Shown in pieces: positions 8,186 to 64,000 of a DNA stretch of 64,000 bases. The DNA comes from Candidatus Omnitrophota bacterium (GTDB taxonomy: Bacteria > Omnitrophota > Gorgyraeia > Pluralincolimonadales > Pluralincolimonadaceae), in NCBI GenBank assembly GCA_028716565.1, contig JAQUPL010000002.1, positions 194,989 to 258,988 on the forward strand, in the 5' to 3' direction. Made by a program: the position numbers and the translations under genes. A model generated the notes under the pieces. It did no database searches, had not been told where the DNA came from, and was given only the letters and a program-made list of their open reading frames with translations. Numbering within the stretch: position 1 is the stretch's first letter; each line of letters begins with the position of its first letter.

Positions 8186-8234
8186 GGGGAGAGCGAAATA
8201 GTAATTAAACCGGTATAAAAAGGAGGGCGGTAAA

Positions 8235-9140: not shown

Positions 9141-9173
9141 GCCCGTTCGTATTAAATTAGGAAAGGCCGGCAT

Positions 9174-18379: not shown

Positions 18380-22955
<4,576 letters not shown>

Positions 22956-22963
<8 letters not shown>

Positions 22964-24395
22964 TACAAAGAGGTTCATGAAGATAAAACGGGAGGCCTCG
23001 TCCTACCGCGCGGTATGCGACCGCGTAAAGGATTACAGGGAGGTGGCTGTCCTGCGCCCGGAGGAGAAGTCGAAGGACCAGAGCTCGCGCTGCATGGACT
23101 GCGGAGTGCCGTTCTGCCATTGGGGCTGCCCGATCGGGAACTATATACCGGAATGGAACGACCTCATCTTCCGCGGCCAGTGGAAAAAGGCCATTGATGT
23201 CCTTCTGGTGACGAACAACCTGCCCGAGGTGACGGGCAGGATCTGCCCGGCCCTGTGCGAATACGCATGCGTCCTCGGGATAAATGATGACCCTGTCACG
23301 ATACGCGAAGACGAGCTGGATATTATAGAATATGCTTTCAAAGAGGGATGGATCAGGCCGAACCCTCCGAAAAAACGCACCGGTAAAAAAGTCGCGGTCA
23401 TCGGCTCCGGCCCGTCAGGCCTTGCCTGCGCCGACCAGTTGAATAAAGCCGGGCACAAGGTCACGGTATTCGAAAGGGACGACAAGATAGGCGGCATATT
23501 GCGTTACGGTATCCCTGATTTCAAATTAGATAAATCCGTCCTCGACAGACGCATAAAGATATGGAAGAAAGAGGGGATAGAGTTTAAGGCGTCCGTTGAT
23601 GTAGGCGCGGATTATAAGGCGGCCAAATTGAATAAGGATTTCGACGCGGTCGTGCTTGCCGGTGGAAGCCGTTTTCCCCGCGATCTCAAGATACCCGGCC
23701 GAGAGCTGGGCGGAATACATTTCGCGATGGATTTTCTCGTCCAGTCGAATAAAAGGGTCTCCGGAATCAAGATACCTTCCGGAAAGCTCATCGACGCGAA
23801 GGGTAAAAAGGTTGTCGTGATCGGCGGCGGCGACACAGGCGCTGACTGCGTAGGCACCGCGCACAGGCAGGGCGCGTCATGCATCGTCCAGATAGAATTA
23901 TTGCCCCAGCCTCCGGAATGCCGCACAAAAGATTTCCCGTGGCCGAAATATCCGATGTTGTTAAAGACGACCTCCAGCCACCAGGAAGGAGGCGATCGCT
24001 ATTGGTCGGTCTCGACCAAGAAGTTTGAGGGCGCCGGCGGCAAGGTCAAGAAACTTTCCTGCGTGAAGGTCGAGATAGGCCGCGACGATAAGGGCTGCAT
24101 GCTGATAAAAGACGTCCCGGGAAGCGGATTCGAGATAGAGGCGGACTTGGTCGTCCTGGCTCTCGGTTTCATGCACCCCGAGAAAGAGCTCATCTCACAG
24201 CTCGGCGTCGAGCTCGACCCGCGCGGCAACGTCAAGACCGACGAACATTACCTCACATCCGTAAAAGACGTATTCGCGGCAGGCGATATGAGGAGGGGCC
24301 AGTCGCTCATCGTCTGGGCCATCTCCGAGGGCCGCCGCGCCGCCCACTCCATCGACAAATACCTCATGGGATCCACCCGCCTGCCGGCTATATAA
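22956..24395 (+). CDS. gltD: Glutamate synthase small subunit (NADPH)
   Basis: Fe-S cysteine clusters (CMDCGVPFCHWGCP, CPALCEYAC) and two dinucleotide-binding motifs (VAVIGSGPSGLACA, VVVIGGGDTGADC). Translationally coupled to gltB. Confidence 0.9.
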
Positions 24396-48836: not shown

Positions 48837-49922
48837 GTGCCTGAAGCGGGTTCTTCAATACATAAGACCCTCAAAGAGATCGCGCAATTAATAGACGGCG
48901 AGGTTATAGGCGACGGGAATGTCGTCATAACCGGGATAAGCGGGATAAGGGAAGCGGAAGAAGGGGACCTGACATTCCTCGCTAACCCGCGCTATGCTCC
49001 TCTGATGGATACGACTAGGGCGTCGGCGATCATAACCTCCCGGGAGACGAAGACCGCTCCCAGGCCGATGATCCGCGCGGATAACCCCTCTATGGCGTTT
49101 GCCAAGGTGATCTCCATCCTTATGCCGAACGACCAGAAGTATCCCGTCGGTATACATCCTGCCGCGGTGGTCGGGAAGAACGTAAAACTCGGGCAGGATG
49201 TCGCGCTCCAGCCGTACGTCGTGATCGACGACGACGCCGCTATAGGGGACAGGACTATAATTTACGCCGGCAGTTATATCGGCAATCGCGCGAAGATAGG
49301 AAGCGACTGCCTGATCTATCCGAACGTCGCGATACGCGATAAGGTCGAGATAGGGAACAGGGTGATAATCCATTCCGGCACGGTCATAGGCAGCGACGGG
49401 TTCGGGTTCGCGACGGTCGGCGGAGAGCATCACAAAATACCCCAGATCGGAACGGTCCTTATCGAGGACGACGTAGAGATAGGCGCCAATGTCACTATCG
49501 ACAGGGCGCGGTTCGGGAAGACTGTGATAGGGAAGGGCACCAAGGTAGACAACCTTGTCCAGATAGCCCATAACGTCATAGTCGGAGAGAATTCCATAAT
49601 AATAGCGCAGGCCGGAATATCCGGTTCGACGGTCATAGGCAAGAACGTCACGATCGCCGGCCAGGCGGGCCTGGTCGGACATATAACGATCGGGGATAAT
49701 GCCGTGCTGGCTGCGCAGGCCGGTGTCACGAAGTCGGTCCCGGCGAATACATGTGTCTCGGGATACCCCGCAAGGCGGCACGATGAGGCGAAGAGGCTGA
49801 ATGCCTTTGTCACGCGCCTGCCGCAGATCGTCGATGAACTGAAAAAACTCGAAGAAAAATTTCAACAGTTGGAGAAGAAGATAGCAGATGGAACAACAGC
49901 TGACAATAAAAAACGCGGTTGA
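48837..49922 (+). CDS. lpxD: UDP-3-O-acylglucosamine N-acyltransferase
   Basis: LpxD N-terminal domain plus hexapeptide repeats. Confidence 0.9.
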
Positions 49923-51219
49923 AACCGAAGGGACCGGCCTGCATACAGGGACGAAGGTGAAAATGCGCCTTTTGCCCGCCGAACCTAATTCCGGCATAAG
50001 CTTTATCCGCGTAGACCTTCCGGATTCGCCGGTGATAAAAGCGAATACCGCCAATGTCATGGAATCCAGCCGCAAACTGAGGAGGACATCGCTTTCATGC
50101 AACGGCGTAGAAGTCCATACGGTGGAGCACCTGCTGTCGGCGCTCAGCGGGATGATGATAGACAATATCAAGGTCGAGATAAACGGCCCCGAGCTTCCCG
50201 GTTTCGACGGTTCCGCGATGCCGTTTGTCGAGCTGATAAAGAAAGCAGGCGCGCAGTCGCAGCCGGAACAGAAAAGGACCTTTACGGTAAAAGACCCGAT
50301 CTGGCTCGAGGAGAACGATACGGTCCTGGCCATACTTCCCGATTCCGAATTAAAGATATCTTATATGTTGAGCTACGACCACCCGTTGCTCAGGTCCCAG
50401 TACGTCTCGGTCGTGATAACGCCTGAGACTTATGAGAAAGAGATAGCCCCGACGAGGACATTCTGCCTGGAGGCCGAGGCCGAGGAGCTGAGACGGCAGG
50501 GGCTGGGCAAAGGCGCGAACTTCGAAAACACCCTCGTTGTCGGCAAGGACGGCGTCATAAAGAATAAATTAAGGTTTAGCGATGAGTTCGCGCGCCACAA
50601 AGTCTCGGACCTTATGGGAGACCTTTACCTTTTGGGCATGCCCTTAAAAGGCCATGTGATAGCCGTAAAATCCGGGCATCCGCTCAACGTCAGGCTTTTA
50701 CAGAAGATAAGGCAGCAGCAGGAGCGCATGCGCGCCGGCGCCATGGAAAGCAAAGGCCCCGGCATCGTTGGCACTCCCCTCGATATCAACGATATAAAGA
50801 AGATACTGCCTCACCGTTACCCGTTCCTGTTGGTTGACAGGGTCATAGAACTCGAGGACGACAAGAGAGCGGTGGGCATAAAGAACGTCACGATGAACGA
50901 ATTTTATTTCCCGGGTCATTTTCCGAACATGCCGATAATGCCCGGAGTGCTCATAATGGAAGCGCTGGCGCAGGTCGCCGGCGTGATGATGCTCAACAAA
51001 AGGGAAAATCTCGGGAAATACGCTTTCTTCATGTCGATGGACAAGGTAAAATTCCGTAAAGCGGTCGTGCCCGGGGACCAGCTTGTCCTTGAGACCGAGG
51101 TGCTGAAACTGCGCTCCAAGACCGTCCAGGTGAAGGCTGTCGCGAGCGTCGACGGGAAAATTGTGGCCGAAGGCGAATTCATGTTCGCCCTGGTCGGCGG
51201 TGAAGAGGCTTCGGAATAA
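49888..51219 (+). CDS. lpxC-fabZ: Bifunctional UDP-3-O-acyl-N-acetylglucosamine deacetylase / 3-hydroxyacyl-ACP dehydratase (LpxC-FabZ fusion)
   Basis: LpxC N-terminal part (TGLHTG...ISF, HTVEHLL...). The C-terminal ~150 aa are a hotdog FabZ domain ([13 protein letters not shown]...FPGHFP...PGVL). Confidence 0.9.
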
Positions 51220-52051: not shown

Positions 52052-52861
52052 ATGGACACCATAGGACTTATCGCGGGTAAAAGCGATTTTCCGCTGCTTT
52101 TCGCCAAAGCAGCGAGATCGAAAGGCGTGAAGGTTATCGCCGTGGGCATCGAGGGCGAGACCAGGCCCGAGGTGGAAAAGCTCGTCGACAAATTTTACTG
52201 GGTAAAACTCGGCGAACTCTCCAAGGTGCTCGAGGTCTTCAAGGCCGAAGGCGTCAAAAAAGCCGTGATGGCCGGCGGGGTCACTAAATCCAGGATATTC
52301 AACGAAGCGCTGAAGATCGACGGGTTGATGAAATCGATCCTTGTCAGGGCTCTGGACAAAAAAGACGATACCCTGTTATCGATGATCACCGCAACGCTGA
52401 AATCGGCCGGCATAGACCTGCTGGATTCGACGCTTTTCCTCGAGGACCTGCTGCCGGCAGAAGGCGTGCCGACGAAGGCGAAACCGGCACTTTCGCAAGA
52501 GGAGGATATCAGGTTCGGCGCGAGGGTCGCGAGGGAAGTGGCCGGCCTGGATATAGGGCTTTCGATATTCGTAAAAGATAAGGCCGTAATAGCGGTCGAG
52601 GATATTGAGGGGACCGACGCTATGATAAGACGCGGCGGACGGCTTGCCGGCGCGGGCGGAGTCATAATAAAAGTCGCGCGACCGAAGCAGAATATGAAAT
52701 TCGACATCCCGGTCATAGGGCCTCAGACTATACGTTCGATGGTTGAGGTGAAGGCGGCCTGCCTCGCGATAGAGGCAAAGAAGACGCTTATAATAGATAA
52801 AGAAGAAACGATCGCTCTCGCGGACAATAATGGTATTTCCATAATAGCGGTAAAAATGTGA
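52052..52861 (+). CDS. lpxI: UDP-2,3-diacylglucosamine hydrolase LpxI (DUF1009 family)
   Basis: N-terminus MDTIGLIAGKSDFP is typical of LpxI and the gene sits in the lpx cluster. Confidence 0.7.
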   Translation: MDTIGLIAGKSDFPLLFAKAARSKGVKVIAVGIEGETRPEVEKLVDKFYWVKLGELSKVLEVFKAEGVKKAVMAGGVTKSRIFNEALKIDGLMKSILVRALDKKDDTLLSMITATLKSAGIDLLDSTLFLEDLLPAEGVPTKAKPALSQEEDIRFGARVAREVAGLDIGLSIFVKDKAVIAVEDIEGTDAMIRRGGRLAGAGGVIIKVARPKQNMKFDIPVIGPQTIRSMVEVKAACLAIEAKKTLIIDKEETIALADNNGISIIAVKM

Positions 52862-53538
52862 GCGGTATCCTTATATTAGGCATAGAGGACGAAGGCCTTA
52901 AGCGCGCCAAAAAAGCGCTGAAAGACGCTGATCACCAGGTCTATTCCTGCGATGAGGCCGATATAAAACCGGTCTACGAAGAGACGCTGAAGAGGCGGCC
53001 GGATGTCATAGTCCTCGATTTCGCCTCCCCCAAGAATTTCGATGCGCAGGCTGTCCTGCGCGCCTTCAAGAAAGACAGGTTCCTGAAAGATACTCCTGTC
53101 TTTGCCGTCCTGCCTGAAGACGGGATGCGGCTTCTCGATAACCTTTCAGGCATCGGCGATTTCATAATTGCCCCGTTTAACGGCGCAGAGCTTGTAGCGC
53201 GCGTCAAGGCGCTCCTCAAAAAAGTCATACCGACCGATTCCGATGACATGATAAAGATAAGCGACCTAATCATAGATGTATCAAGATACGAAGTGTCATT
53301 GAACGGCAGCAAGGTGGAGCTCACGTTCAAAGAATACGAACTCCTTAAATTCCTCGCCTCAAACAAAGGCCGCGTCTATTCCCGGGACCAGCTGCTCGAC
53401 AAGATCTGGGGATACGATTACTACGGCGGTACCCGCACGGTGGATGTCCATATCCGCCGCCTCCGCAGCAAGATAGAGGACCGGAAGCATACCTTTATCG
53501 AGACCATCCGCAACATCGGCTACAAATTCATCGCTTAA
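52858..53538 (+). CDS. Orphan OmpR-family response regulator with a degenerate receiver domain; candidate GlnR-like nitrogen regulator
   Basis: C-terminal winged-helix trans_reg_C domain (LTFKEYELLKFLASNKGRVYSRDQLLDKIWGYDYYGGTRTVDVHIRRLR). In the receiver domain the conserved KPF lysine is APF, the conserved Thr is Leu, and the N-terminal acidic pair is E-D; the phospho-acceptor Asp is retained (VIVLDF). No histidine kinase is adjacent. GTG start overlaps the lpxI stop. Confidence 0.8.
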   Translation: MSGILILGIEDEGLKRAKKALKDADHQVYSCDEADIKPVYEETLKRRPDVIVLDFASPKNFDAQAVLRAFKKDRFLKDTPVFAVLPEDGMRLLDNLSGIGDFIIAPFNGAELVARVKALLKKVIPTDSDDMIKISDLIIDVSRYEVSLNGSKVELTFKEYELLKFLASNKGRVYSRDQLLDKIWGYDYYGGTRTVDVHIRRLRSKIEDRKHTFIETIRNIGYKFIA

Positions 53539-53557
53539 TCCCGTAACCTGCTTTTTA

Positions 53558-53658
53558 CCTTGAAATTTAAGCCTCGCTCGGCCTTTCTTTATTACTCGCC
53601 TCTGCCAAATATCTACTGCGTCATAAACCGGCTCTTTGCGAGGCGTTAAATTTCAAGG
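53558..53658 (+). repeat. ~100-nt palindromic intergenic repeat element, copy A, with 11-bp perfect terminal inverted repeats CCTTGAAATTT / AAATTTCAAGG
   Basis: About 80% identical to the reverse complement of 61090..61188. Conserved internal blocks are CGGCCTTTCTTTATTACTCG and ACTGCGTCATAAACCGGCTCTT. The inner stem is GCCTCGC/GCGAGGC. Confidence 0.5.
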
Positions 53659-53678
53659 CATGACACCCGCATGCAAGA

Positions 53679-53731
53679 TTAACCAAGATTTAACGCGCAT
53701 GTAATACGGATTTAACATTCGCCCGTATACT
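53679..53731 (+). promoter_or_regulatory. Four half-sites (TTAAC, TTAAC, GTAAT, TTAAC) phased at exactly 11 bp (53679, 53690, 53701, 53712), then a TATACT -10 element at 53726..53731, just upstream of the rubredoxin-like/porin/amt operon
   Basis: Direct-repeat architecture ending 9 bp upstream of the -10 with no -35, typical of OmpR/PhoB/GlnR-class activator sites. The 13-mer GGATTTAACATTC recurs identically at the glnA promoter. Confidence 0.45.
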
Positions 53732-53738
53732 TACGGGT

Positions 53739-53921
53739 ATGAAGATCAAAGAAGATGATCTTGAGCGGAAGTACAGGTGCGCAAAGTGCGGCTACTTAAC
53801 GCAGCGGCAGGCGCCCCCCAGGAGCTGTCCGATATGCAGGGCCGGCTCCGAAGCTTTTGACGACATCGGTGTCGACAGGTCAACGGAGAAAAGGGCGGTC
53901 TTTAATCCAAGATTAATATAG
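53739..53921 (+). CDS. Small rubredoxin-like zinc-ribbon protein
   Basis: CAKCGY...CPICRAG, i.e. CxxC-N17-CxxC. The start codon lies 7 nt after the -10 element, so the transcript may be leaderless. Small ORF, moderate support. Confidence 0.4.
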   Translation: MKIKEDDLERKYRCAKCGYLTQRQAPPRSCPICRAGSEAFDDIGVDRSTEKRAVFNPRLI

Positions 53922-53992
53922 GGTTAATCTGTTTGTAACATTGATAGTTATACTTGTTTGGTGAGAACATTGGGAGAAAGAGAGAAGATCAG

Positions 53993-54784
53993 ATGTTCCG
54001 TCAAAACGTTTGGCTGGTCATATGTATCATAGGCGCGCTTTCCTTAATTACCCCCGCGGCCTGTTTCGCGACCGCAACCACCCACATCTGGGCGCCATCC
54101 ACTGACGTCCAGGCGTACGGAGTCGTCCACATAACCCCGGGAGACGTGTATATTCCCGTAAACAAGGACAAATTCGGGAACAGGGTCAACGTAATAACTA
54201 ACGAAGGGCTCACAGTCGGTGTTTTGCCTTTCGAGAAATTCAACATTGAGGTAGGTTTCGACAACAAGACAGGGTACGGGGAGCTGGACAATTACCCGAT
54301 ATATTTTAACGCAAAAGGTGGGATACCTGAAGGTGCGTTCGGTGAATGGTTCCCCGCCCTGGCTGTTGGCGCTTATGATATAGGGACGAAGGCTGACAAG
54401 ACCAATAGCAACGTGCTCTACTTCAAAGGCGCAAAGACATTCAAAATTAATGATTTCAACCTCGGCCGTCTCTCAGTCGGATATTTTAACGGCAACGGCA
54501 AATTGTTACGGGGTCCGAACGGCGGAAAAGACAACGCCGACGTCTTCGGCGCCTGGGAGCGCACGATGTCAGAGATATCGGACAAGCTCTGGCTTTGCGT
54601 TGAATACCAGGGGACGAAGAGCTCCTACGGTTGCTGGAATTTCGGCGGGTCATGGAAATTCTCGGATAATGTCTCGCTGCTCGTAGGGTTCGATCATTAC
54701 AACAACAGAAACTTTGCTGATACGGTTACAGTACAAGTCGATATAGATTTCGACGCGTTCAGCAATCTGTTCAAGAAGAAATAG
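53993..54784 (+). CDS. Outer-membrane beta-barrel protein, probable porin, encoded upstream of amt
   Basis: Signal peptide (MFRQNVWLVICIIGALSLITPAACFA), alternating amphipathic beta-strand pattern and C-terminal Phe-containing strands. The track start at 53954 is a TTG. Confidence 0.55.
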   Translation: MFRQNVWLVICIIGALSLITPAACFATATTHIWAPSTDVQAYGVVHITPGDVYIPVNKDKFGNRVNVITNEGLTVGVLPFEKFNIEVGFDNKTGYGELDNYPIYFNAKGGIPEGAFGEWFPALAVGAYDIGTKADKTNSNVLYFKGAKTFKINDFNLGRLSVGYFNGNGKLLRGPNGGKDNADVFGAWERTMSEISDKLWLCVEYQGTKSSYGCWNFGGSWKFSDNVSLLVGFDHYNNRNFADTVTVQVDIDFDAFSNLFKKK

Positions 54785-54793
54785 AGGTGACCC

Positions 54794-56161
54794 ATGTTTA
54801 AGAAAATAACGGCTTTTCTCGCGATATTCACGATAACGATAGGAGTGTCCTGCCTGGCGTTTGCCCAGGATCCCAGCGGCGCGGAGACGCTGGCGCAGAA
54901 CCCGAACTCTCCGGTCGATTACGTATGGGTGCTCGTCTGCGGCTTCCTGGTATTCTTCATGCAGGCCGGGTTTGCGATGGTGGAGGCCGGTTTCTGCAGG
55001 GCCAAGAACGCCACAAACCTCATGGCAAAGAACACTATAGACTTTGTCACTGCGTCGCTTATTTTCATGGCTTTTGGCTTCGCCTTCATGATGGGAAATG
55101 ACTACAACGGCATCATAGGTACTTCCGGATGGTTTCTTCACGGCCCGAACTATGATGTCGGAAGATACCTCCTGTTCTTCTGGCAGTTGGTATTTGCCGG
55201 GACCGCAGCTACGATAGTCTCCGGAGCTATCGCGGAAAGGCTGAAATTTAAAGCCTATTTCCTTTACAGTATCATGGTCACGGCCGTTATATATCCAATA
55301 TATGGGCATTGGGTATGGGGTGGAGGATGGCTTTCCAAACTGCCTTTTGGGATCGGTCATGTTGATTTTGCCGGCTCCGGAGTTGTCCATGCGATAGGCG
55401 GTTTTGTAGGTCTTGCGGGTGCCATGGTCCTCGGGCCGCGTTTCGGAAAATTCAACAAGGAAAGAAAGCCAAGGGCTATACCGGGCCACAGCATAACCCT
55501 CGCCGCGCTAGGCACTTTTATCCTCTGGTTCGGATGGTTTGGGTTCAATCCCGGATCGACTTTTTCCGCTCACCAGCTCAGGATAGCGGTGATAGCCGTC
55601 AACACCAATCTCGCCGCAGCGGCCGGCGCGGCAGTTGCAATATTGCTTGTTTTCATGAAGACGAAGAAATGGGATGTCGGCATGATGCTTAACGGTTGCC
55701 TTGCAGGCCTTGTCGCTGTTACCGCACCCTGCGCTTGGATCGAGGCGTGGGCCGCGGTTGTCATAGGTGCCATCGCCGGAACGATTGTAGTCGTCGGCGT
55801 CTATTTCTGGGAGAACCGCGGTGTGGATGATCCGGTAGGCGCTGTCAGCGTCCACGGGTTAAACGGTGTCTGGGGCTTGATAAGCGTCGGGCTGTTTGCC
55901 GACGGAACATACGGTCTGGGTTCTACTTCAGCGCCTTTCGTAAAGGGCCTGTTCTATGGTGGCGGGTACGGCCAGCTGATAGCCCAGCTGATAGGCGCTG
56001 CCGTATGCGTTTCATGGGCGTTCATATTGGGCTTTATCGGGTTCAAATTGATGGATAGGTTATTCGGCATAAGAGTTTCGCCGCAGGAGGAACTCAAGGG
56101 CTTGGATATTCCTGAGCACGGGACGCCCGCTTATCCCAATTTCTATACGTATAGTAATTAG
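54794..56161 (+). CDS. amt: Ammonium transporter (Amt family) with cleavable signal peptide
   Basis: Amt signature regions (DFAGSGVVH, GFNPGS); 455 aa. Confidence 0.9.
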   Translation: MFKKITAFLAIFTITIGVSCLAFAQDPSGAETLAQNPNSPVDYVWVLVCGFLVFFMQAGFAMVEAGFCRAKNATNLMAKNTIDFVTASLIFMAFGFAFMMGNDYNGIIGTSGWFLHGPNYDVGRYLLFFWQLVFAGTAATIVSGAIAERLKFKAYFLYSIMVTAVIYPIYGHWVWGGGWLSKLPFGIGHVDFAGSGVVHAIGGFVGLAGAMVLGPRFGKFNKERKPRAIPGHSITLAALGTFILWFGWFGFNPGSTFSAHQLRIAVIAVNTNLAAAAGAAVAILLVFMKTKKWDVGMMLNGCLAGLVAVTAPCAWIEAWAAVVIGAIAGTIVVVGVYFWENRGVDDPVGAVSVHGLNGVWGLISVGLFADGTYGLGSTSAPFVKGLFYGGGYGQLIAQLIGAAVCVSWAFILGFIGFKLMDRLFGIRVSPQEELKGLDIPEHGTPAYPNFYTYSN

Positions 56162-56175
56162 AGAGGGACAAAAAG

Positions 56176-56514
56176 ATGAAGAAGATAGAAGCGGTTGTCC
56201 GCATAGAAAAACTGGAAGAGATCACTGAGGCCCTGGATAAGTTCGGTTATCCCGGAATGATGGTCACTCATATAGAGGGGCATGGCCGCCAGAAAGGGCT
56301 CGCGGAGCAGTTCAGGGGAAGGGAGTATAAGGTAAATTTCCTTCCTAAGATAAAGATCGAGATCGTGGTCAAGGATTCCGATGTCGAGAAGCTGGTCAAG
56401 GCGATAACCGGTATCGCGAGGACCGGCGAGATCGGAGACGGAAAGATATTCATATATGCCGTCGAAGATACAGTCAGGATACGCACCGGTGAAAAAGGCG
56501 AAAGCGCTATATAG
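56176..56514 (+). CDS. glnK: Nitrogen regulatory protein P-II
   Basis: MKKIEAVVR...GRQKG...T-loop RGREYKV; no conserved Tyr51 equivalent is obvious, though the T-loop is present. 112 aa, adjacent to amt. Confidence 0.9.
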   Translation: MKKIEAVVRIEKLEEITEALDKFGYPGMMVTHIEGHGRQKGLAEQFRGREYKVNFLPKIKIEIVVKDSDVEKLVKAITGIARTGEIGDGKIFIYAVEDTVRIRTGEKGESAI

Positions 56515-56517
56515 GCC

Positions 56518-56697
56518 ATGGTTGATAAAGAATTGATAGAGAAGATCCGCAGGCTGAAGGAGGACAGGGGCTATACTCTCTATGATCTGGCGAAAAGGGT
56601 CGACATTCAGCCGTCGACCCTTGAGCGCTGGTTCAAGACAAACCGCATAAACAGGATTTATGCCGAGACGGTAAGGGTGAGGCTGGGGATCAAGTAA
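56518..56697 (+). CDS. 59-aa helix-turn-helix protein between glnK-1 and amt-2
   Basis: MVDKELIEKIRRLKEDRGYTLYDLAKRVDIQPSTLERWFKTNR...; YTLYDLAKRVDIQPSTLERW is a classic HTH. It starts 4 nt after the glnK stop and is not in the ORF track (under 60 aa). Confidence 0.45.
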   Translation: MVDKELIEKIRRLKEDRGYTLYDLAKRVDIQPSTLERWFKTNRINRIYAETVRVRLGIK

Positions 56698-56759
56698 TTT
56701 TTTGTCGCTATTATCCCAATTGGTTACTCAGTTTGCTAAGCAAAAGAGAGGAGACGAAA

Positions 56760-58097
56760 ATGGTAAAAATTATGAAGAGCCTGCCGTTCTGGTTCTTCGC
56801 CGCTTTCCTGTTTTTTACAGTGATCGCGACAGTTGTCGCGGCCGAGGAAGTAGCGCCTGCGGTGAAAGTCGACTCGGGCGATACGGCGTGGCTCCTTATG
56901 TCAGCTGCGCTGGTATTATTGATGACACCTGCCCTGGCATTTTTCTACGGCGGCCTCGTGCGAAGGAAGAATGTGCTTTCGATCCTGATGCAGTGTTTTA
57001 TGGTGATGTGCCTGATAACAATCCAGTGGGTACTTTTTGGCTATAGCCTCGCATTCGGTCCGGATGTCAAAGGCGTCATCGGGAGCCTGGCGTGGTTCGG
57101 GTTAAAAGGCGTGGGCCTCGACCCCAATCCGGCGTATGCCGCCACGGTCCCCCACCAGGCGTTCATGATATTCCAGGGTATGTTCGCTATCATCACACCT
57201 GCCTTGATATTGGGCGCGTTCGCCGAGAGGATGAAGTTCTCGACGTTCTGCGTATTTGCGCTTGTATGGGCGACTCTTGTATATGATCCGGTCTGCCATT
57301 GGATCTGGGGTGTCGGCGGTTTCCTGAGGGCCGACGGGGCGCTTGATTTCGCGGGAGGCACGGTCGTCCACATCAATGCCGGCGTCGCAGCCCTGGCGAG
57401 CGCCCTGGTATTGGGAAAACGCAAAGGATACCCGGACAAGATATCGCCTCCGCATAACCTTCCGTTCGCGGTATTGGGCGCGGGGTTATTGTGGTTCGGG
57501 TGGTTCGGGTTCAACTCAGGCAGTGCCTTAGGCTCGGGCAGCCTGGCGACTAGCGCTTTCGTGGTTACCCACATAGGAGCCGCCTCGGCCGGACTTACGT
57601 GGGCGCTTCTGGATTGGATATTCAGTTCCCGTTCGACGGTATTGGGTATTATTACCGGCGCCGTCGCCGGACTTGTCGCGATAACCCCGGCTTCGGGTTT
57701 TGTGAACCCGGTCGGAGCGATATGGATAGGCATCGGCGTATCGGTCTTTTGCTATATGGCCGTCGCATTACTCAAGGTGAAATTCGGTTACGACGATTCC
57801 CTTGACGCTTTCGGTGTCCACGGGATCGGCGGCATGTGGGGAGCCCTGGCGACAGGCCTCTGGGCAACGAAGGCCGTAAACGCGTCCGGGAATAACGGGT
57901 TCTTCTACGGGAACCCGGCGCAATTCTTGATACAGTTCAAGGCTGTTATTATTACCGCGGTCTATTCGTTCGTCATGACCTTTGTGATACTTAAGGCGCT
58001 TAACGCGGTGATGGGCGTGCGCGCCTCCGAGCAGGATGAGCGCATCGGCCTGGACCTCACACAACATCGCGAAGCCGGATATACGGTATTGGACTAA
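56760..58097 (+). CDS. amt: Ammonium transporter (second copy)
   Basis: Start set at the ATG at 56760, which follows the RBS AGAGAGGAG; the track ORF begins at a TTG at 56733. Signal peptide plus Amt core. Confidence 0.9.
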   Translation: MVKIMKSLPFWFFAAFLFFTVIATVVAAEEVAPAVKVDSGDTAWLLMSAALVLLMTPALAFFYGGLVRRKNVLSILMQCFMVMCLITIQWVLFGYSLAFGPDVKGVIGSLAWFGLKGVGLDPNPAYAATVPHQAFMIFQGMFAIITPALILGAFAERMKFSTFCVFALVWATLVYDPVCHWIWGVGGFLRADGALDFAGGTVVHINAGVAALASALVLGKRKGYPDKISPPHNLPFAVLGAGLLWFGWFGFNSGSALGSGSLATSAFVVTHIGAASAGLTWALLDWIFSSRSTVLGIITGAVAGLVAITPASGFVNPVGAIWIGIGVSVFCYMAVALLKVKFGYDDSLDAFGVHGIGGMWGALATGLWATKAVNASGNNGFFYGNPAQFLIQFKAVIITAVYSFVMTFVILKALNAVMGVRASEQDERIGLDLTQHREAGYTVLD

Positions 58098-58105
58098 CAG
58101 GGAGA

Positions 58106-58453
58106 ATGAAAATGAAATATATTATCGCGATAATCCAGCCTGACAGGCTCGATGAGGTACTGGCAAAGTTGGAAGAAAAAGAGATACACCTGGTCACCGT
58201 GACCGGAGTTATGGGCCGCGGCCGCCAAAAAGGCATCTCCGAGGTCTACAGGAGCCATAAGGAGGCGGGAAGCCTGCTTAAAAAGGTCAAGCTCGAGATA
58301 GCCGTAAACGACGATTTCGTCAAGCCCGCGGTGGAAGCGATAAAGTCCGGCGCCCACACCGGCCACATCGGGGACGGGAAGATATTTATTCTCGATTTGC
58401 CGGAATGTATTCGGATACGTACAGGCGAGAAAGGAAATCCCGCAATCGGATAG
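58106..58453 (+). CDS. glnK: Nitrogen regulatory protein P-II (second copy)
   Basis: P-II fold with T-loop RGRQKGISEVYRSHK; 115 aa. Confidence 0.9.
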   Translation: MKMKYIIAIIQPDRLDEVLAKLEEKEIHLVTVTGVMGRGRQKGISEVYRSHKEAGSLLKKVKLEIAVNDDFVKPAVEAIKSGAHTGHIGDGKIFILDLPECIRIRTGEKGNPAIG

Positions 58454-58486
58454 GTTTAAGCGGGTGACTGCCGACGGAGCCCTTGG

Positions 58487-58509
58487 CCCTGTTGCCCGAA
58501 GCAACAGGG
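58487..58509 (+). other. Perfect 9-bp stem-loop CCCTGTTGC-CCGAA-GCAACAGGG between glnK-2 and glnA
   Basis: GC-rich hairpin without a following T tract; possibly an RNA processing or pause element. Confidence 0.35.
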
Positions 58510-58570
58510 ACGAGGTGCTCGGCAGGCAGGACCCGCCCTAGCGAACCGATTGTTCGGGAGAGATTAAGAT

Positions 58571-58613
58571 TTAACATTTGCGTAATATGGATTTAACATT
58601 CATTTTGTATACT
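58571..58613 (+). promoter_or_regulatory. Second copy of the phased-repeat activator site (TTAAC 58571, GTAAT 58582, TTAAC 58593) plus a TATACT -10 at 58608..58613, upstream of glnA
   Basis: Same spacing and the same 13-mer GGATTTAACATTC as at 53708..53720; the -10 lies 10 bp after the last half-site. The glnA RBS AAGGGAGG is at 58628..58635. Confidence 0.45.
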
Positions 58614-58644
58614 TTTGGCATAAAAATAAGGGAGGTAAGCCAGC

Positions 58645-60156
58645 ATGAAAGGGAAAGCAGTAAAGAAGGAGATAGTGGAAGTGAAGACGAAGAATCCGCT
58701 CGCGAACGGCTCGTTTGACGACAAGGCCGCGCGAGATGTGATGAAACTCATCAAAGACAAGAAGATCGATATTATCGACCTGAAGTTCAACGACCTGCCG
58801 GGGCTGTGGCAGCATTTCTCGATACCGGCATCCGAACTGCTCGAGATGGACGATATTACCCGTTCCATCTGGGTCGACGGCATCGGGTTTGACGGTTCTT
58901 CGATCCGCGGTTTCCAGAAGATACAGGAATCGGACATGATCATGATACCGGACCCGGCTACGGCGGTCATAGACCCGGTATGCGAAGTCCCGACCTTAAG
59001 CATCATCTGCGACATCTATGACCCGTTGACGCGCAAACCGTACAGCCGCGATCCACGTTATATCGCGAAGAAGGCGGAGAAATATTTGAAGGAGACCGGC
59101 ATTGCCGATTCCGTATATTTCGGGCCCGAAGCCGAATTCTTCATCTTTAACGATATCCGCTTCGACCAGAACGAGAATTCGGGCTACTATTTCATCGACT
59201 CGGTCGAGGGCGACTGGAACACCGGCAAGAAAGAAGACCCGAACCTTGGGTACAAGATACGCTACAAGGAAGGGTATTTCCCTGTCCCGCCGCACGATTC
59301 GCTCCAGGACTTAAGGAGCCGCATAATCCTCAAGATGAAGGAAGCGGGAGTGAACATTGAAGTCCATCATCATGAAGTCGCCACAGCCGGCCAGTGTGAG
59401 ATCGACATAAAGTTCGACAAGCTGACCAAAATGGCCGACAGCCTATTGATGTACAAATACATCATAAAGAACATGGCAAAAAAAGCCGGTATGGTCGCGA
59501 CGTTCATGCCGAAACCGCTCTTCGCGGATAACGGCTCAGGCATGCATTGCCACCAGAGCCTTTGGAAGAACGGCACGAACCTTTTCTTTGACAAGAACGG
59601 CTACGCGCTCTTAAGCCAGACCGCCAAATATTATATCGGCGGACTTTTAAAGCACGCGAACAGCCTCATGGCCTTCTGCGCACCGACGACAAACTCGTAC
59701 AAGAGGCTCGTCCCGGGCTACGAAGCGCCTGTCAACCTCGTCTATTCTGCGCGCAACCGTTCGGCAGCTGTCCGCATCCCGATGTACAGCGACAGCCCGA
59801 AATCCAAGAGGATCGAGTTCAGGCCTCCTGACCCGTCATGCAACGGCTACATCGCCTTCAGCGCAATGCTCATGGCCGGGTTGGACGGTATCATCAACAA
59901 GATAGACCCGGGCAAGCCGAACGACAAGGACCTCTTCGAATTAAGCGAAGAGGAAATGGCTAAAATACCCACGGTCCCGTCGTCTTTGCGCAGGGCTATC
60001 GACGCTTTGGAAGCGGACCACGAGTACCTGCTTAGAGGCGGGGTATTCACCAAGGATGTCATAGACATTTGGCTTGAATACAAGAGGAAGAAAGAGATAG
60101 ATGCCGTGAGAATGCGTCCGCATCCTTACGAGTTCTACCTGTATTTCGATATTTAA
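58645..60156 (+). CDS. glnA: Glutamine synthetase type I-beta
   Basis: Collinear with E. coli GlnA (DIRFD..., [23 protein letters not shown]). It carries a ~30-aa N-terminal extension. The adenylylation-loop Tyr is replaced by Phe ([12 protein letters not shown]). Confidence 0.9.
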
Positions 60157-60163
60157 GTTTATA

Positions 60164-60181
60164 GTAGAGGGGATCCTCTAC
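60164..60181. terminator. Hairpin GTAGAGG-GGAT-CCTCTAC between convergent glnA and a minus-strand membrane protein gene
   Basis: 7-bp stem with AT-rich flanks on both sides; candidate bidirectional terminator. Confidence 0.4.
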
Positions 60182-60184
60182 CAG

Positions 60185-61021
60185 TTATTCGAGAGGCGGT
60201 TTATAAGTAGGGGCGGTTCCTAAAGGATTGGCTGGCTGCCCACCCCCAATGTTGGGCGCAGGAGCTGCCCCTTCTTCTTTTTTTGAAAATGCCAGATAAC
60301 CCATCGTGAAGAGCCCTACGACGGGAATGACCGTAATAATCCCGATCCATCCTTCCTTGCCGCGCGCCAAGGCGATCTTGTACCAGAGGAGACCGAAGAG
60401 GAATAGGTAGCATAACGGCCCTAACGGCGGTATTAATCCGGAAAGGAGCAGCAACAGCCAGGTATACCGCACATTCCCGATATTGCATGCCAGGAATAAG
60501 TTTGCGATGGGTATCCAGGCCATCCATCCATTTTGGGTATCCGTTTTCCCTGCGATAACCTGAAGGCATACGGCCAAGTAGATGTAATAGATCAGGGAAC
60601 CGGTTATTATGACGCCGAGAAATGCCATTAGAAACGCTATTATGACGGCTAACAAAGCCTTGCTTTCTTTATCTGATAGTTTGTTTTCAGGGTTTTTTCC
60701 TGAAGGGCCCGATATCTTTTCTTCCTGCGGCCCGCTTGGCGGCGTCGCCATCGATCCGGTCACAGGATTTGCCGCCGCCGGGACGATTTCAGCCGGAGGC
60801 ACGGCAGGCTTAAATTCCACTGCCTGCCCGTTTATCTCCTGTATCTCGGAGAGGTCGTATGTCATTTCGGTAACGCCGTAAATATCGACGGTTATGGTAT
60901 CGTTGGTTATCGCCTTAATATTCCCCTCGATCTTCTTTCCGGACCTGAAAGTTACCGTATCCGCCCAAGCGCTCACCGCGAACAATACGACCGCCGCGCA
61001 TATGATCAACGCCTTTTTCAT
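60185..61021 (-). CDS. Hypothetical membrane protein (signal peptide, small beta-rich domain, Pro/Ala/Gly linker, C-terminal multi-TM region)
   Basis: Start set at MKKALIICAAVVLFAVSAWA with an AGGAGG RBS; the track ORF extends to 61096. No confident family assignment. Confidence 0.55.
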   Translation of the reverse strand: MKKALIICAAVVLFAVSAWADTVTFRSGKKIEGNIKAITNDTITVDIYGVTEMTYDLSEIQEINGQAVEFKPAVPPAEIVPAAANPVTGSMATPPSGPQEEKISGPSGKNPENKLSDKESKALLAVIIAFLMAFLGVIITGSLIYYIYLAVCLQVIAGKTDTQNGWMAWIPIANLFLACNIGNVRYTWLLLLLSGLIPPLGPLCYLFLFGLLWYKIALARGKEGWIGIITVIPVVGLFTMGYLAFSKKEEGAAPAPNIGGGQPANPLGTAPTYKPPLE

Positions 61022-61089
61022 TACTGCCTCCTGTATGGTTAAATTGTATCCAAACTTCCCCTTGAAGGCAAGCACTTTTACTGGTATAC

Positions 61090-61188
61090 CCTGCAATTTA
61101 ACGTCTCGCGAAGAGCCGGTTTATGACGCAGTATGCTATAACTCGCTGCGAGTAATAAAGAAAGGCCGAGAGAGACTTAAATTGCAGG
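61090..61188 (-). repeat. Copy B of the ~100-nt palindromic repeat element (inverted relative to copy A), terminal inverted repeats CCTGCAATTT / AAATTGCAGG
   Basis: The reverse complement aligns to 53558..53658. The terminal inverted repeats differ from copy A (TTGAA versus TGCAA) yet stay perfectly self-complementary, and the inner stem shows a C:G to T:A exchange. It sits in the divergent region between the membrane protein gene and nadE. Confidence 0.5.
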
Positions 61189-61257
61189 AAAAAGGGGCAA
61201 AATTCTTTTCTTGCATTTTTGGAAAAATTTGATATAATAAGGGGCTAAATTAGCGAG

Positions 61258-62976
61258 GTGAAAATGGATCCGATCCGCTTTGGCATAGCCCAAATGAACT
61301 CCACCGTGGGTGACCTTCAGGGCAACAAAGAGAAGATAATAAAATTCATAAGTGACGCAAGATCATTGGGTTGCGACATAGTAATCCTCCCGGAGCTCGC
61401 CATAACCGGTTATCCGCCCGAAGACCTCCTCCTTAAGCCCCAGTTTGCGGATGACGCCGTGAAAGCGCTTAACGAAATAGTCCACAAGACCGATAATATA
61501 ATAGTTATAGTGGGTTGCCTCGACAAAGCCAAGGATGGGCTGTACAATTCAGCCGCTCTTATTCGCGACAAGGAACTTATCCACATATACCATAAGATAC
61601 TCCTCCCGAATTATGGCGTATTTGACGAAAAACGCTATTTCAAGCCCGGAAACGAGTCTTTTGCCTTCAAGTTCGAAGGCCTCAAGATCGGGCTGAATAT
61701 CTGCGAGGACATATGGGAATGTTGCGGCCCCGCGAGCTTTGAGGCGGTCGACATGGGCGCGCAGGTCATGATCAATATTTCGGCATCGCCTTACCACGCC
61801 GGCAAGATACAGGCGCGCGAGAAGATGCTTGTGGAGAGGGCCCAGCAGACCGCCGCTATCGTGATCTACGATAACATGGTGGGCGGCCAGGATGAGCTCG
61901 TCTTCGATGGCGGGAGCATGGTTATAGGATGGAAAGGCAGCGTTTTAACGCGCGGAAAGCAGTTCGAAGAGGATATCGCGCTCTTCGACCTCAATCCCGA
62001 AGAATATCTTAAATACAGGAAGGTCCCAAAGAGGAAGCCGGCGGTAAATAATTACAGGGTAAAGGAGTTATCGCTGAAGAGGTGCGAGGTAAAGATAAGG
62101 CCGCCTTTCCCGCCGCGCCGCCTCGAAAAATTAGGCAGCATAGAGGAGATATACAAGGCGCTTGTCCTGGGCACCAGGGATTATATGACGAAGAATGGCT
62201 TCAAGAAAGCGGTCGTCGGCGTAAGCGGGGGGATAGATTCGGCCTTGACCGCGTGCATAGCCGTCGACGCGCTCGGAAAGGATAACGTCGCCGCGGTCAC
62301 GATGCCGTCCATGCATACAAAGGAAGAGACGCGCGTGGACGCCATAGCCGTCGCGAAGAATTTAGGCCTAAAGACGGCGGCCATACCCATAAATACCATC
62401 TACCAGGCATATATGCGTATGCTTAAGAAGGAATTCAAGGACGCCAAGACAGATATAACCGAAGAGAACCTGCAGGCGAGGATCCGCGGCAACATCCTCA
62501 TGGCGCTTTCGAATAAATTCAACTGGCTCGTCCTGACGACCGGGAACAAGAGCGAGATGTCGACGGGTTATTGCACCCTCTACGGCGATATGGCCGGGGG
62601 ATTTGCGGTCATAAAAGATGTATTAAAGACCGTCGTTTACCAGTTGGCAGAATACAGGAACGCGGTAGCCGGCAAGGAGGTCATACCGGTCACGACGATA
62701 AAGAGGGCGCCGACCGCCGAATTGAAACCCAACCAGAAAGACCAGGATACGCTTCCTCCTTACCACGTGCTGGACGATATCCTGAAGTTATATGTCGAAG
62801 AAGACAGGTCGGCGAGCGAGATCATCGCCCAGCGTTTCGACGCGAAGACGGTCAAGAAGGTCATCTCGAGGGTCGACAAGAACGAATATAAGAGGCGCCA
62901 GAGCCCGCCAGGGGTCAAGATAACCCCGAAGGCATTCGGCAAGGACCGCAGGGTCCCAATAACGAACAGATATTAA
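61258..62976 (+). CDS. nadE: Glutamine-dependent NAD+ synthetase (nitrilase domain plus NAD synthetase domain)
   Basis: N-terminal CN-hydrolase domain (IAQMNSTVGD..., ELAITGYPPEDL) and a C-terminal PP-loop (VVGVSGGIDSAL). Confidence 0.9.
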   Translation: MKMDPIRFGIAQMNSTVGDLQGNKEKIIKFISDARSLGCDIVILPELAITGYPPEDLLLKPQFADDAVKALNEIVHKTDNIIVIVGCLDKAKDGLYNSAALIRDKELIHIYHKILLPNYGVFDEKRYFKPGNESFAFKFEGLKIGLNICEDIWECCGPASFEAVDMGAQVMINISASPYHAGKIQAREKMLVERAQQTAAIVIYDNMVGGQDELVFDGGSMVIGWKGSVLTRGKQFEEDIALFDLNPEEYLKYRKVPKRKPAVNNYRVKELSLKRCEVKIRPPFPPRRLEKLGSIEEIYKALVLGTRDYMTKNGFKKAVVGVSGGIDSALTACIAVDALGKDNVAAVTMPSMHTKEETRVDAIAVAKNLGLKTAAIPINTIYQAYMRMLKKEFKDAKTDITEENLQARIRGNILMALSNKFNWLVLTTGNKSEMSTGYCTLYGDMAGGFAVIKDVLKTVVYQLAEYRNAVAGKEVIPVTTIKRAPTAELKPNQKDQDTLPPYHVLDDILKLYVEEDRSASEIIAQRFDAKTVKKVISRVDKNEYKRRQSPPGVKITPKAFGKDRRVPITNRY

Positions 62977-62991
62977 CGAAAGGAGATGCAG

Positions 62992-64000
62992 ATGGCAGCC
63001 AGATCGGTCAAAGATAAAGAATATGTATTGAAGATGGCCAAAGAGGCCAACGTCAAGTTCATCAGGTTGTGGTTTGCCGACATCCTCGGTTTCGTAAAAT
63101 CCTTCGCGATAACCGTCGAGGAGCTCGAAGGAGCTCTCGAAGAGGGGATGGGATTTGACGGTTCCTCTATAGAGGGTTTCGCTCGCATAGACGAGTCGGA
63201 CATGATGGCGCGGCCGGACCCGAACACATTCTGCCTACTCCCGTGGAGGCCTAAGGACGAATTCGCGGTCGCGAGGATGTTCTGCGATATCGTCCGGCCG
63301 GACGGAAGCCCGTTCGAAGGCGACCCCAGGTATATATTGAAGCAAAACCTGAAGCGCGCGGCCAAACTCGGCTTCACTTTTTATGTCGGTCCCGAGCTCG
63401 AGTTCTTCTATTTCAAGGACAATAAAGGGACCGAGCCGCTCGATGCCGGAGGGTATTTCGACCTTATACCGCCTGACCCGGCATCTGACCTCAGGAGGGA
63501 TACGGTGCTTATGTTGGAGGCGATGGGAATAGGCGTCGAATACAGCCACCACGAGGTCGCGCCGAGCCAGCACGAGATAGACCTGAGATATACGGACGCG
63601 CTCACGATGGCCGACGCGGCGATGACATACCGCGTCGTAGTAAAAGAGGTCGCGCAGCGCTACGGGTTCTATGCGACATTCATGCCGAAGCCGGTCTACG
63701 GGGTAAACGGCTCGGGTATGCACGTCCACCAGTCGCTCTTCAAGGGTGACAAGAACGCCTTCTTCGAGGCGAAGGACAAGTACCATCTCTCGAAGATCGC
63801 GAAGAACTATATCGCCGGACTGCTTAAACATTCCCGCGAGATAACCTCGGTCACAAGCCAGTGGGTCAACTCATATAAGAGGCTCGTCCCGGGCTACGAG
63901 GCACCGGTCTACATCGCCTGGGCGAAGAGGAACCGGTCCACGCTTGTAAGGATACCCGAATACAAGCCCGGAAAAGAGAAGGCGACGCGCATCGAGTACC
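62992..64000 (+). CDS. glnA: Glutamine synthetase type I-alpha, 5-prime partial (continues beyond the window)
   Basis: Collinear with Bacillus-type GlnA ([47 protein letters not shown]). RBS GAAAGGAG lies 7 nt before the ATG at 62992. Confidence 0.9.
   Translation, partial: MAARSVKDKEYVLKMAKEANVKFIRLWFADILGFVKSFAITVEELEGALEEGMGFDGSSIEGFARIDESDMMARPDPNTFCLLPWRPKDEFAVARMFCDIVRPDGSPFEGDPRYILKQNLKRAAKLGFTFYVGPELEFFYFKDNKGTEPLDAGGYFDLIPPDPASDLRRDTVLMLEAMGIGVEYSHHEVAPSQHEIDLRYTDALTMADAAMTYRVVVKEVAQRYGFYATFMPKPVYGVNGSGMHVHQSLFKGDKNAFFEAKDKYHLSKIAKNYIAGLLKHSREITSVTSQWVNSYKRLVPGYEAPVYIAWAKRNRSTLVRIPEYKPGKEKATRIEY

Follow-up and report, generated by a model that had tools for sequence, protein, structure and literature searches.

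The two inverted copies of a palindromic element of ~100 nt, here called A and B, that flank the amt/glnK/glnA island in a 64,000-nt stretch of Candidatus Omnitrophota bacterium DNA (contig JAQUPL010000002.1; hereafter, the window) are members of a lineage-specific family of interspersed hairpin repeats of Omnitrophota. The family is probably of the same kind as REPINs, ERIC sequences and MITEs (miniature transposable elements with inverted repeats), mobile at present or formerly. All of the 28 distinct copies recovered from public genomes and metagenomes have in common a near-invariant asymmetric core, GGCCUUUCUUUAUUACUCGC ... GCGUCAUAAACCGGCU. Because the copies are scattered between unrelated housekeeping genes, the element is not a nitrogen-specific control element, and the flanking of the island by A and B is incidental.

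Two Inverted Copies in the Window

A first-pass annotation of the window had reported two inverted copies of ~100 nt with ~80% identity. Indeed, copy A and the reverse complement of copy B are identical at 85 of 102 columns (83.3%) in a global alignment, while shuffled versions of copy B are 49.7 ± 2.4% identical to copy A, with a maximum of 56.9% (n = 500). The blocks described as shared, CGGCCTTTCTTTATTACTCG and ACTGCGTCATAAACCGGCTCTT, occur exactly twice each in the window, even when three mismatches are allowed, against chance expectations of 0.01 and 0.00, respectively. A repeat finder also detected the two halves of the element as inverted arms, one of 48 nt (90% identity) and one of 46 nt (87%). 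The terminal arms, CCTTGAAATTT/AAATTTCAAGG in A and CCTGCAATTT/AAATTGCAGG in B, differ between the copies and stay self-complementary, so the compensated difference noticed at first reading is confirmed. For the inner stem, which is GCCTCGC/GCGAGGC in one copy and GTCTCTC/GCGAGAC in the other, the reported swap from C:G to T:A is real, while the second change, taken for a T-G wobble, is a T × C mismatch (pair 28:112).

As RNA, both copies are predicted to fold into long interrupted hairpins (A, −35.0 kcal/mol; B, −33.6 kcal/mol); as DNA, A reaches −20.1 and B −19.1 kcal/mol. Folding is about as favorable for the opposite strands, as expected of a near-palindrome. A covariance model, R1, matches copy A over 53552–53663, and copy B over 61084–61195 on the minus strand, where the plus strand reaches only 17.4 bits. 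The parts of the two copies are as follows.

53558–53658, plus strand: copy A, whole repeat, 101 nt (R1, 121 bits; RNA fold, z −5.9)
53558–53577, plus strand: 5′ arm of the basal stem (P1 + P1b) of copy A, CCTTGAAATTTAAGCCTCGC, pairing with 53638–53658; its columns covary across the 28 copies
53580–53599, plus strand: 5′ half of the invariant core of copy A, GGCCTTTCTTTATTACTCGC (exact repeat; invariant columns in alignment A2)
53600–53617, plus strand: variable tip of copy A, CTCTGCCAAATATCTACT, “type I” (differs between A and B and between subfamilies)
53618–53633, plus strand: 3′ half of the invariant core of copy A, GCGTCATAAACCGGCT (exact repeat; invariant columns in A2)
53638–53658, plus strand: 3′ arm of the basal stem of copy A, GCGAGGCGTTAAATTTCAAGG, with one bulged G (fold, covariation)
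61090–61188, minus strand: copy B, whole repeat, 99 nt, inverted relative to A (R1, 112.5 bits; RNA fold, z −4.6)
61170–61188, minus strand: 5′ arm of copy B, CCTGCAATTTAAGTCTCTC (sequence, fold)
61148–61167, minus strand: 5′ half of the core of copy B, GGCCTTTCTTTATTACTCGC (exact repeat)
61130–61147, minus strand: variable tip of copy B, AGCGAGTTATAGCATACT, “type II,” in which the inner helix is prolonged as CGCAG/CUGCG (comparison, fold)
61114–61129, minus strand: 3′ half of the core of copy B, GCGTCATAAACCGGCT (exact repeat)
61090–61109, minus strand: 3′ arm of copy B, GCGAGACGTTAAATTGCAGG (sequence, fold)

A GenBank assembly of the same organism (locus L001, 9820–9920) differs from copy A of the window at two positions; through one of these changes, a C to T within the 5′ arm, a C-G pair becomes U-G. 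The window thus derives from an assembly or strain that is slightly different.

A Repeat Family in Omnitrophota

When GTDB genomes, one for each species, were scanned with a two-block pattern, 10 loci were obtained, and nine of them are real; a second pattern gave 21 loci in metagenome contigs, of which 20 are real. One locus from Oscillospiraceae (L013) is a chance pattern match without any match to R1, and another (L029) is a chance match lying antisense inside a glycosyltransferase open reading frame (ORF) from soil, without the arms. All loci with a named organism, including the nine real loci from GTDB (9/9), belong to metagenome-assembled genomes titled Omnitrophota or “uncultured Planctomycetia.” R1 gives 81–121 bits on the copies and matched nothing else in 353 kb of fetched loci; on the opposite strand it gives at most 33 bits, so the strands are cleanly separated. 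The element therefore exists in more than two copies, and its structure is conserved in other genomes and metagenomes. Exact-match patterns undercount the family: a divergent copy, L014b, was missed by the first pattern.

No match was found in viral contigs. Rfam 15 at the gathering score detected only a tRNA in the window, and only tRNAs and RNase P in ten other loci bearing the element; no curated model thus matches it. When E values up to 10 were accepted for 53400–61400, the sole hit overlapping a copy was PhotoRC-I at 61103–61137, whose 16 bits (gathering score, 45) are at chance level. In the literature library that was searched, the core sequence was found in no paper, and among the papers listed by a repeat and palindrome search none names Omnitrophota. 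The family is apparently undescribed, and it is now defined, in an uncultured phylum, by an alignment and a consensus structure together with a covariance model.

Architecture and Covariation

The element has a size of ~100–130 nt. Its consensus fold begins with a basal stem of 17 + 3 pairs (~20 bp), followed by an internal loop. The core then comprises the helices GGCC/GGCU (including an invariant G-U), UUUAU/AUAAA, and CGC/GCG, with asymmetric loops made only of pyrimidines, UUUC opposite CC and UACU opposite UC. Beyond the core, the tip has 16–37 nt and ranges from a weakly paired one to a GC hairpin of high stability. When diverse copies were folded independently, the same architecture was obtained, at −24 to −55 kcal/mol. 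In alignment A2, 29 columns are invariant in the 28 copies: GGCC-(3–4 nt)-TTTATTACTC(G/A)C ... (C/T)GTCATAAA(C/T)CGGCT. Neither core half is palindromic alone; pairing is formed only between the halves.

In contrast to the core, the basal stem covaries. It is paired in 94.4% of cells, compared with 26–45% when the partners are slid by 1–3 columns, and 17 of its pairs are changed on both sides, with 64 compensated cells, which none of 500 shuffles reached; the covariation check suggested at the outset is thus positive. An arm motif, TGAAATTTAAG/CTTAAATTTCA, is present in 23 of the 28 copies, and the other five (L009, L014b, L011, L024, and L031) have wholly unrelated yet complementary arms, for example, GGCTTAACTTTTTG/CGAAAAACTTAAGCC in L009, CCGGGCAAGCGGATTCAC/GTGAATCCGCTTGCCCGG in L014b, and CCTGAAATCCTG/CAGGATTTCAGG in L011.

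A structured RNA classically combines internal loops that are invariant with stems that covary and a tip whose length varies, and the element shows this pattern. Possibly, though we consider it unlikely, the element is a functional RNA module, not necessarily mobile, whose core binds a conserved Omnitrophota protein, such as an RNase or a 3′-end factor, or is catalytic or ligand-binding. Located after stop codons, such a module might, with the same low likelihood, set mRNA 3′ ends or operon polarity, the stem and tip serving as a scaffold. The clean strand separation by R1 favors this explanation, as do two G-U pairs of the core, 32:104 (invariant) and 50:88 (in 26 of 28 copies), that become A-C mismatches on the other strand. 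The non-Watson–Crick pairs of the variable stems argue against it, with 10 G-U and 18 A-C, and so does the lack of a matching Rfam family, also when E values up to 10 were admitted. Since the helices of the core are invariant, they give no evidence for or against core pairing. The first-pass conclusion that compensatory changes point to RNA-level structure was too strong, given these G-U and A-C counts and the compensated hairpin changes documented in mobile REPIN DNA (PMC3116915). As to whether RNA or DNA is the selected structure, the evidence is mixed. The case is a warning for searches of new RNA motifs, since a function as RNA is not demonstrated by strong covariation alone.

The same observations bear on an improbable alternative, in which the element is a DNA-level site without mobility, namely, an extruded hairpin or cruciform bound by a nucleoid, topoisomerase, recombination, or replication protein. 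It would parallel functions proposed for some repetitive extragenic palindromic (REP) sequences and bacterial interspersed mosaic elements (BIMEs). Both strands fold, and the non-Watson–Crick pairs have no strand preference, as would be expected of such a site; against it, no candidate protein was identified.

Genomic Contexts and Orientation

The copies occupy at least 20 unrelated intergenic contexts. Examples are given below as upstream gene / downstream gene, with the direction of the element; the neighboring genes were confirmed by Pfam.

murG / murC: sense
dnaK / dnaJ: sense
RNase E/G / rplU: sense
ksgA / gatC: sense
argS / mfd: sense
MiaB/RimO-like / membrane protein: sense
heptosyltransferase / DUF3108: sense
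aroC / aroK: antisense
class-III aminotransferase / PLP-dependent enzyme: antisense
pilT-like / mraZ: antisense

Furthermore, two copies are located upstream of tRNA genes. Among copies between co-directional neighbors, ~13 are sense and 4 (L008, L009, L028, and L014b) are antisense (two-sided binomial p ~0.05). In 13 of 14 sense copies, the 5′ end of the element is at −13 to +33 nt relative to the upstream stop codon, with a median of ~9 nt, and in L006/L011/L014a, L020, and L038 a TGA in the arm serves as stop codon for the upstream gene. The distance to the next gene, 17–340 nt, is longer than the upstream gap.

As most copies are just past a stop codon and point with transcription, they would be co-transcribed, giving a stable hairpin (−24 to −55 kcal/mol) in 3′ or intercistronic RNA. 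Probably, its effect would be on the stability or processing of RNA 3′ ends, as proposed for REP, ERIC, and Correia sequences. In the window, copy A lies in the 3′ region of an OmpR-family gene, upstream of the promoter of the nitrogen operon, and copy B lies between two divergent predicted promoters.

The sense bias and the tight placement after stop codons are also what the structured-RNA explanation would lead one to expect. Against it, there are well-preserved copies for which transcription of the proper strand is unexpected, such as B, the copy of L036, and the four antisense ones. Copies preserved between divergent promoters suit an immobile DNA site, for which the orientation bias relative to genes needs an extra assumption, that is, coupling to the direction of replication.

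Several other functions were considered and set aside. An intrinsic terminator is excluded by the 3′ flanks, since no copy is followed by a T-run. An independent small RNA gene with its own promoter is improbable for most copies, which start at most 20 nt past a stop codon and leave no room for a promoter. A small peptide starting from ATG ACG CAG on the antisense strand is unconserved, its frame ending after 3 codons in A and 10 in B. A sigma-54 promoter was dropped, because GG-N10-GC spacing was seen by eye just downstream of A and none at B. Finally, the loops of the purine-rich antisense strand do not appear to fit the K-turn or loop-E consensus. In L008 (~3029–3043, plus strand), an extended −10-like sequence, TGcTATAAT, was noticed by eye ~70 nt upstream of the element on the same strand; it could drive the own transcription of that copy, which is antisense to the genes on both sides.

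Presence, Absence, and Possible Turnover

Orthologous nitrogen islands were fetched through homologs of the porin-like protein encoded in the island. The site of copy A is empty in L002, whose porin-like protein is 86% identical, and in L004, while the site of copy B is a 119-nt spacer without the element in L006 and L007; R1 agrees in all these cases. The element at the A site is 19 nt past the stop codon of the OmpR-family gene in the window, whereas in L006 (porin-like protein 71% identical), L011, and L014 it overlaps that stop codon and has a different tip type. There is a more complicated case in L014, where two head-to-head copies are present at the A site, 48 nt apart (5999–6097, plus strand, and 6146–6259, minus strand). 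In the second of them, L014b, the 18-bp arms are altogether different, and the tip is branched and longer. The IMG genome Ga0111183 carries one copy on each of four contigs, and near-identical copies, including the tip, are found at unrelated loci and in different samples. Dispersed copies with insertion polymorphism, as in MITEs, were thus found (at least 20 contexts, and several genomes with 2–4 copies). Sites that are polymorphic between close relatives count against a functional RNA module, and presence or absence in close relatives argues against an essential chromosomal site.

Rearrangements are also associated with the element. In the related genomes L018 (2654–2753), L026 (2315–2414), and L036 (641–740), it is located at synteny breakpoints whose flanks are 78–83% identical at the DNA level: heptosyltransferase/element/DUF3108, rpmB (reversed)/element/another gene, and DUF3108 (reversed)/element/rpmB, respectively. 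The element is flipped relative to rpmB among these loci, which suggests rearrangement at or between copies. In Omnitrophota, the family may be useful for tracking genome rearrangements and differences between strains.

Another type of change is a block substitution. In L011/L014a, TTAAA of the 3′ arm in L006 is replaced by CAGGA, which now matches an unusual 5′ arm. From comparison of these sequences, the change has the appearance of a DNA correction templated by the hairpin and not of compensation in steps. Such a correction of several nucleotides at once disfavors a selected RNA and is consistent with hairpin-templated repair at a DNA-level site.

Some copies have other short repeats next to them. 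A block of 30 nt (...GCGACGAAGCAATCTA), immediately 5′ of the element, is 100% identical between L010 (4391–4420) and L027 (135–164) and is found also in L022; a GC-rich block, cgagcgggca...gagcgag, is common to L008 (3260–3301) and L003 (3–46) at 91%; and the block gaccttgtgttcttgcaggga links L008 (3039–3103) with L015 (7360–7423) at 82%. By analogy, this mosaic is reminiscent of BIMEs.

Probable Mobility of the Repeat

As a mobile repeat, the family would have spread, or would still be spreading, as non-autonomous DNA into short intergenic spacers, and the invariant core would most plausibly be recognized by a trans-acting protein. Since the arms need only pair, recognition of an extruded hairpin fits better than that of fixed terminal inverted repeats (TIRs).

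The alternative of a classical MITE, derived from an insertion sequence (IS) with a DDE transposase (for example, an IS630-like one with a TA target) and mobilized through its TIRs, is distinctly improbable. The element is of suitable size, has no coding capacity, and is intergenic, all of which would suit it, and so would the arm motif common to most copies and the flanking dinucleotides, among which TA is the commonest (6 at the left and 8 at the right of 27). Against it, only L019 and L038, 2 of 27 copies, have TA on both sides, the outermost bases vary and covary instead of being conserved, five copies have unrelated arms around an intact core, and conservation peaks internally and not at the termini. 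No parent IS was found among the fetched loci. The suggestion of a MITE-like or REP-type repeat in the first-pass annotation therefore stands as far as multiple copies, polymorphism, and many contexts are concerned, while conserved TIRs and target-site duplication, which it would also imply for a MITE, are not seen.

Several observations weigh against a mobile repeat family. Copies per genome are few, 1–2 in GTDB genomes with the strict pattern and at least 4 in Ga0111183, which looks low, far below typical REP or MITE families. No target-site duplication was detected: the flanking dinucleotides are identical in only 6 of 27 copies, and these six are all self-complementary (CG, TA, AT), so that they equally represent an extension of the stem. 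The outermost 2–6 bp of the stem vary among the copies. Neither a transposase nor a RAYT nor an autonomous relative was seen in the fetched loci or the annotated parts of the window. Across genomes of 41–57% GC the core does not vary, and the orientation bias would be accounted for equally well by a selected but immobile RNA function. Lastly, copy B and the copy of L036 lie between divergent genes, where co-transcription is unexpected. Solo half-sites were also absent from the 353 kb of fetched loci, and in the comparison of the window and L017 with the empty site of L002, the flanks are too diverged to give insertion boundaries.

Comparison with Known Repeats

The attC sites of integrons are imperfect palindromes of 57–141 nt placed after the stop codon of the upstream ORF, orientation-specific, and conserved in structure rather than in sequence. 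The Omnitrophota repeat is similar in being an imperfect palindrome, in its orientation-specific placement after stop codons, in its paired structure with bases unpaired on one strand, and in its variable terminal structure, and the 3′ arm of most copies contains GTTAAAT, which fits GTTRRRY of attC. On the other hand, the 5′ arm has ATTTAAG and not RYYYAAC, and five copies (L009, L011, L014b, L024, and L031) lack both boxes. Unlike cassette arrays beside intI, the copies are solitary among core housekeeping genes, and their interior sequence is invariant. An attC site was therefore rejected on the basis of boxes, arrays, and integrase.

ERIC sequences occur in either orientation, with copy numbers varying widely between species, and their RNA hairpins are proposed to affect mRNA stability. 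The Omnitrophota repeat resembles the enterobacterial ERIC, or intergenic repeat units (IRU, RU-1; 127 bp), in being an imperfect palindrome of ~100–130 bp with a conserved center at intergenic sites that are often transcribed (see also PMC2759123). It differs in its unrelated host lineage and in the absence of sequence similarity; in addition, orientation bias and placement after stop codons are not defining features of ERIC.

REPINs are doublets of REP sequences that form hairpins and are mobilized by RAYT transposases (Bertels and Rainey, 2011; PMC3116915). Like them, the Omnitrophota repeats are non-coding extragenic hairpins of ~100 nt with two inverted halves, compensatory changes, and a variable spacer or tip; they also show occasional clusters or nested insertions, and a trans-acting protein is presumed. 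In REPINs, each REP is a short palindrome of 20–40 nt and the outer parts are the most conserved, whereas the halves of the Omnitrophota repeat are non-palindromic and its inner core is conserved. REPINs amount to tens to hundreds per genome and cluster at RAYT genes, in contrast to the 1–4 copies found here, for which no RAYT was found, and the two have no sequence similarity. In PMC3733652, the REP stem is described as adjoined by a conserved GTAG or CGTC head. CGTC does occur in the Omnitrophota repeat, but inside the invariant 3′ core (GCGTCAT) and not at the foot of a short palindrome, and a match of four nucleotides is weak.

Bacterial MITEs (reviews, PMC3184786, PMC10969869) include Correia/NEMIS, RUP, and RPE. 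The Omnitrophota repeat is, like these, small, non-coding, intergenic, hairpin-forming, and polymorphic between strains, and can supply stop codons or potentially alter neighboring transcripts. MITEs are defined by conserved TIRs and target-site duplication, while the termini of the Omnitrophota repeat vary and covary, and no duplication is detectable.

By these comparisons, the family seems to resemble most closely the co-transcribed intergenic hairpin repeats ERIC, REPIN, and Correia. Its combination of an invariant asymmetric interior and ends that drift in a compensated way is unusual, and makes it a test case for hairpins of this type. A more tentative proposal, to which we assign a rather low probability, is that the core with its freely covarying helices constitutes a new functional module specific to Omnitrophota. 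It would be either a protein-binding or self-processing RNA acting after stop codons at mRNA 3′ ends or in operon uncoupling, or a single-stranded DNA hairpin for an HUH- or recombinase-type enzyme that requires neither fixed ends nor target duplication. If the core is indeed the recognition site of a protein or enzyme, it would point to an undescribed system of mobilization or RNA processing.

The Nitrogen Island and a Separate Promoter Box

Genes around the two copies in the window, which are present also on contig JAQTMX010000008.1 of GCA_028714115.1, are as follows.

52858–53538: OmpR-family gene, 226 aa, in which Pfam detects only the C-terminal DNA-binding domain
53739 (start): rubredoxin-like gene, 60 aa, followed in order by porin-like, amt, glnK, amt, glnK, and glnA (58645–60156) genes
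60185–61024, minus strand: membrane protein gene, whose counterpart in L006 carries DUF5684
61258–62976, plus strand: nadE, beyond which lies a second glnA

Copy A begins 19 nt past the stop codon of the OmpR-family gene, and the rubredoxin-like gene starts, with ATG at 53739, 80 nt downstream of the copy. Copy B is located between the divergent membrane protein gene and nadE, ~65 nt from the start codon of the former (ATG 61024, minus strand). Thus, the spacing of 70–80 nt upstream of a gene start described in the first-pass annotation is close to the actual values, and the two copies do have the same orientation relative to the downstream gene. A promoter-like TTGCCT-17-TACAAT is found beside copy B on the minus strand (61071–61043), and by direct reading TTGCAT followed by TATAAT precedes nadE on the plus strand and is kept in L006. 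Copy B is situated between these two divergent promoter-like sites and therefore inside neither predicted leader.

That the element is a cis-regulatory RNA bracketing the amt/glnK/glnA island, one of the candidates originally put forward, or an operator there, in either case responsive to nitrogen, is very improbable. The position of the copies, each 65–80 nt before a start codon in the same relative orientation at the borders of the island, would agree with it, and some copies are near genes that use glutamine (gatCAB in L016). Like nitrogen-gene leader RNAs such as the glnA RNA of Rfam, the element is a conserved structured one upstream of nitrogen-related genes in the window. Unlike them, it has no Rfam match, its contexts are mostly unrelated to nitrogen, and it often lies 3′ of genes or between promoters that diverge. 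In orthologous islands the element is missing at one or both sites (A site, L002 and L004; B site, L006 and L007), copy B is outside the leaders, and at the promoters of the island there is another conserved box, found whether the element is there or not. The tempting reading of a structured RNA bracketing a nitrogen island is thereby removed.

This box, distinct from the hairpin, is a direct repeat, TTAAC-N6-GTAAY-N6-TTAAC, with pentamers at 11-bp spacing. It is exact at 53690–53716, before the rubredoxin-like gene, and at 58571–58597, before glnA, and degenerate copies are present at 53901–53939, before the porin-like gene. Six matches were obtained against 1.27 expected, and six were reached in none of 100 shuffles. 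An exact box occupies the same promoter positions in nine related loci, L001–L004, L006, L007, L011, L014, and L017, whether or not the hairpin is present. As judged from sequence, it is the actual candidate for a nitrogen operator, and the adjacent 226-aa OmpR-family protein is the obvious candidate for its regulator; the architecture is reminiscent of GlnR-type boxes of OmpR-family regulators. An operator akin to the TTAAC box was also considered for the arm motif ATTTAAG/GTTAAAT of the hairpin and rejected, since copies with unrelated arms keep the core. Before the rubredoxin-like gene, the box region spans 53679–53716, and a −10-like TATACT is located ~7 nt before the ATG (53726–53739) and conserved in relatives; from its position, the mRNA may be leaderless or nearly so.

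Other Features of the Window

The two glnA paralogs (58645–60156 and ~63000–64000) were detected as direct repeats D6 and D10 with 72–76% identity, and genes for the large and small subunits of glutamate synthase are present at 18380–24395. With two glnA genes and these subunits, the window is rich in nitrogen-assimilation genes beyond the flagged island. In relatives, the second glnA is followed by a gene for a GAF-ANTAR protein (L006, 20035–20763, just beyond the 3′ end of the window), which might act on the nitrogen cluster as an RNA-binding antiterminator. An lpx cluster upstream of the island contains a fused LpxC-FabZ gene (49888–51219; 443 aa, PF03331 + PF07977) that is found in all fetched relatives. 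At 7323–10969, four tandem units of ~960 bp (repeat families D1–D3, 62–80% identity, spacing 951–973) lie within or next to an ORF of 1525 aa (3608–8185) and the following ORFs of ~300 aa; they are either a repeated-domain gene or a tandem array of paralogs. The exact counterpart, on Logan contig L039, of one ORF adjoining these units carries Glucodextran_C.

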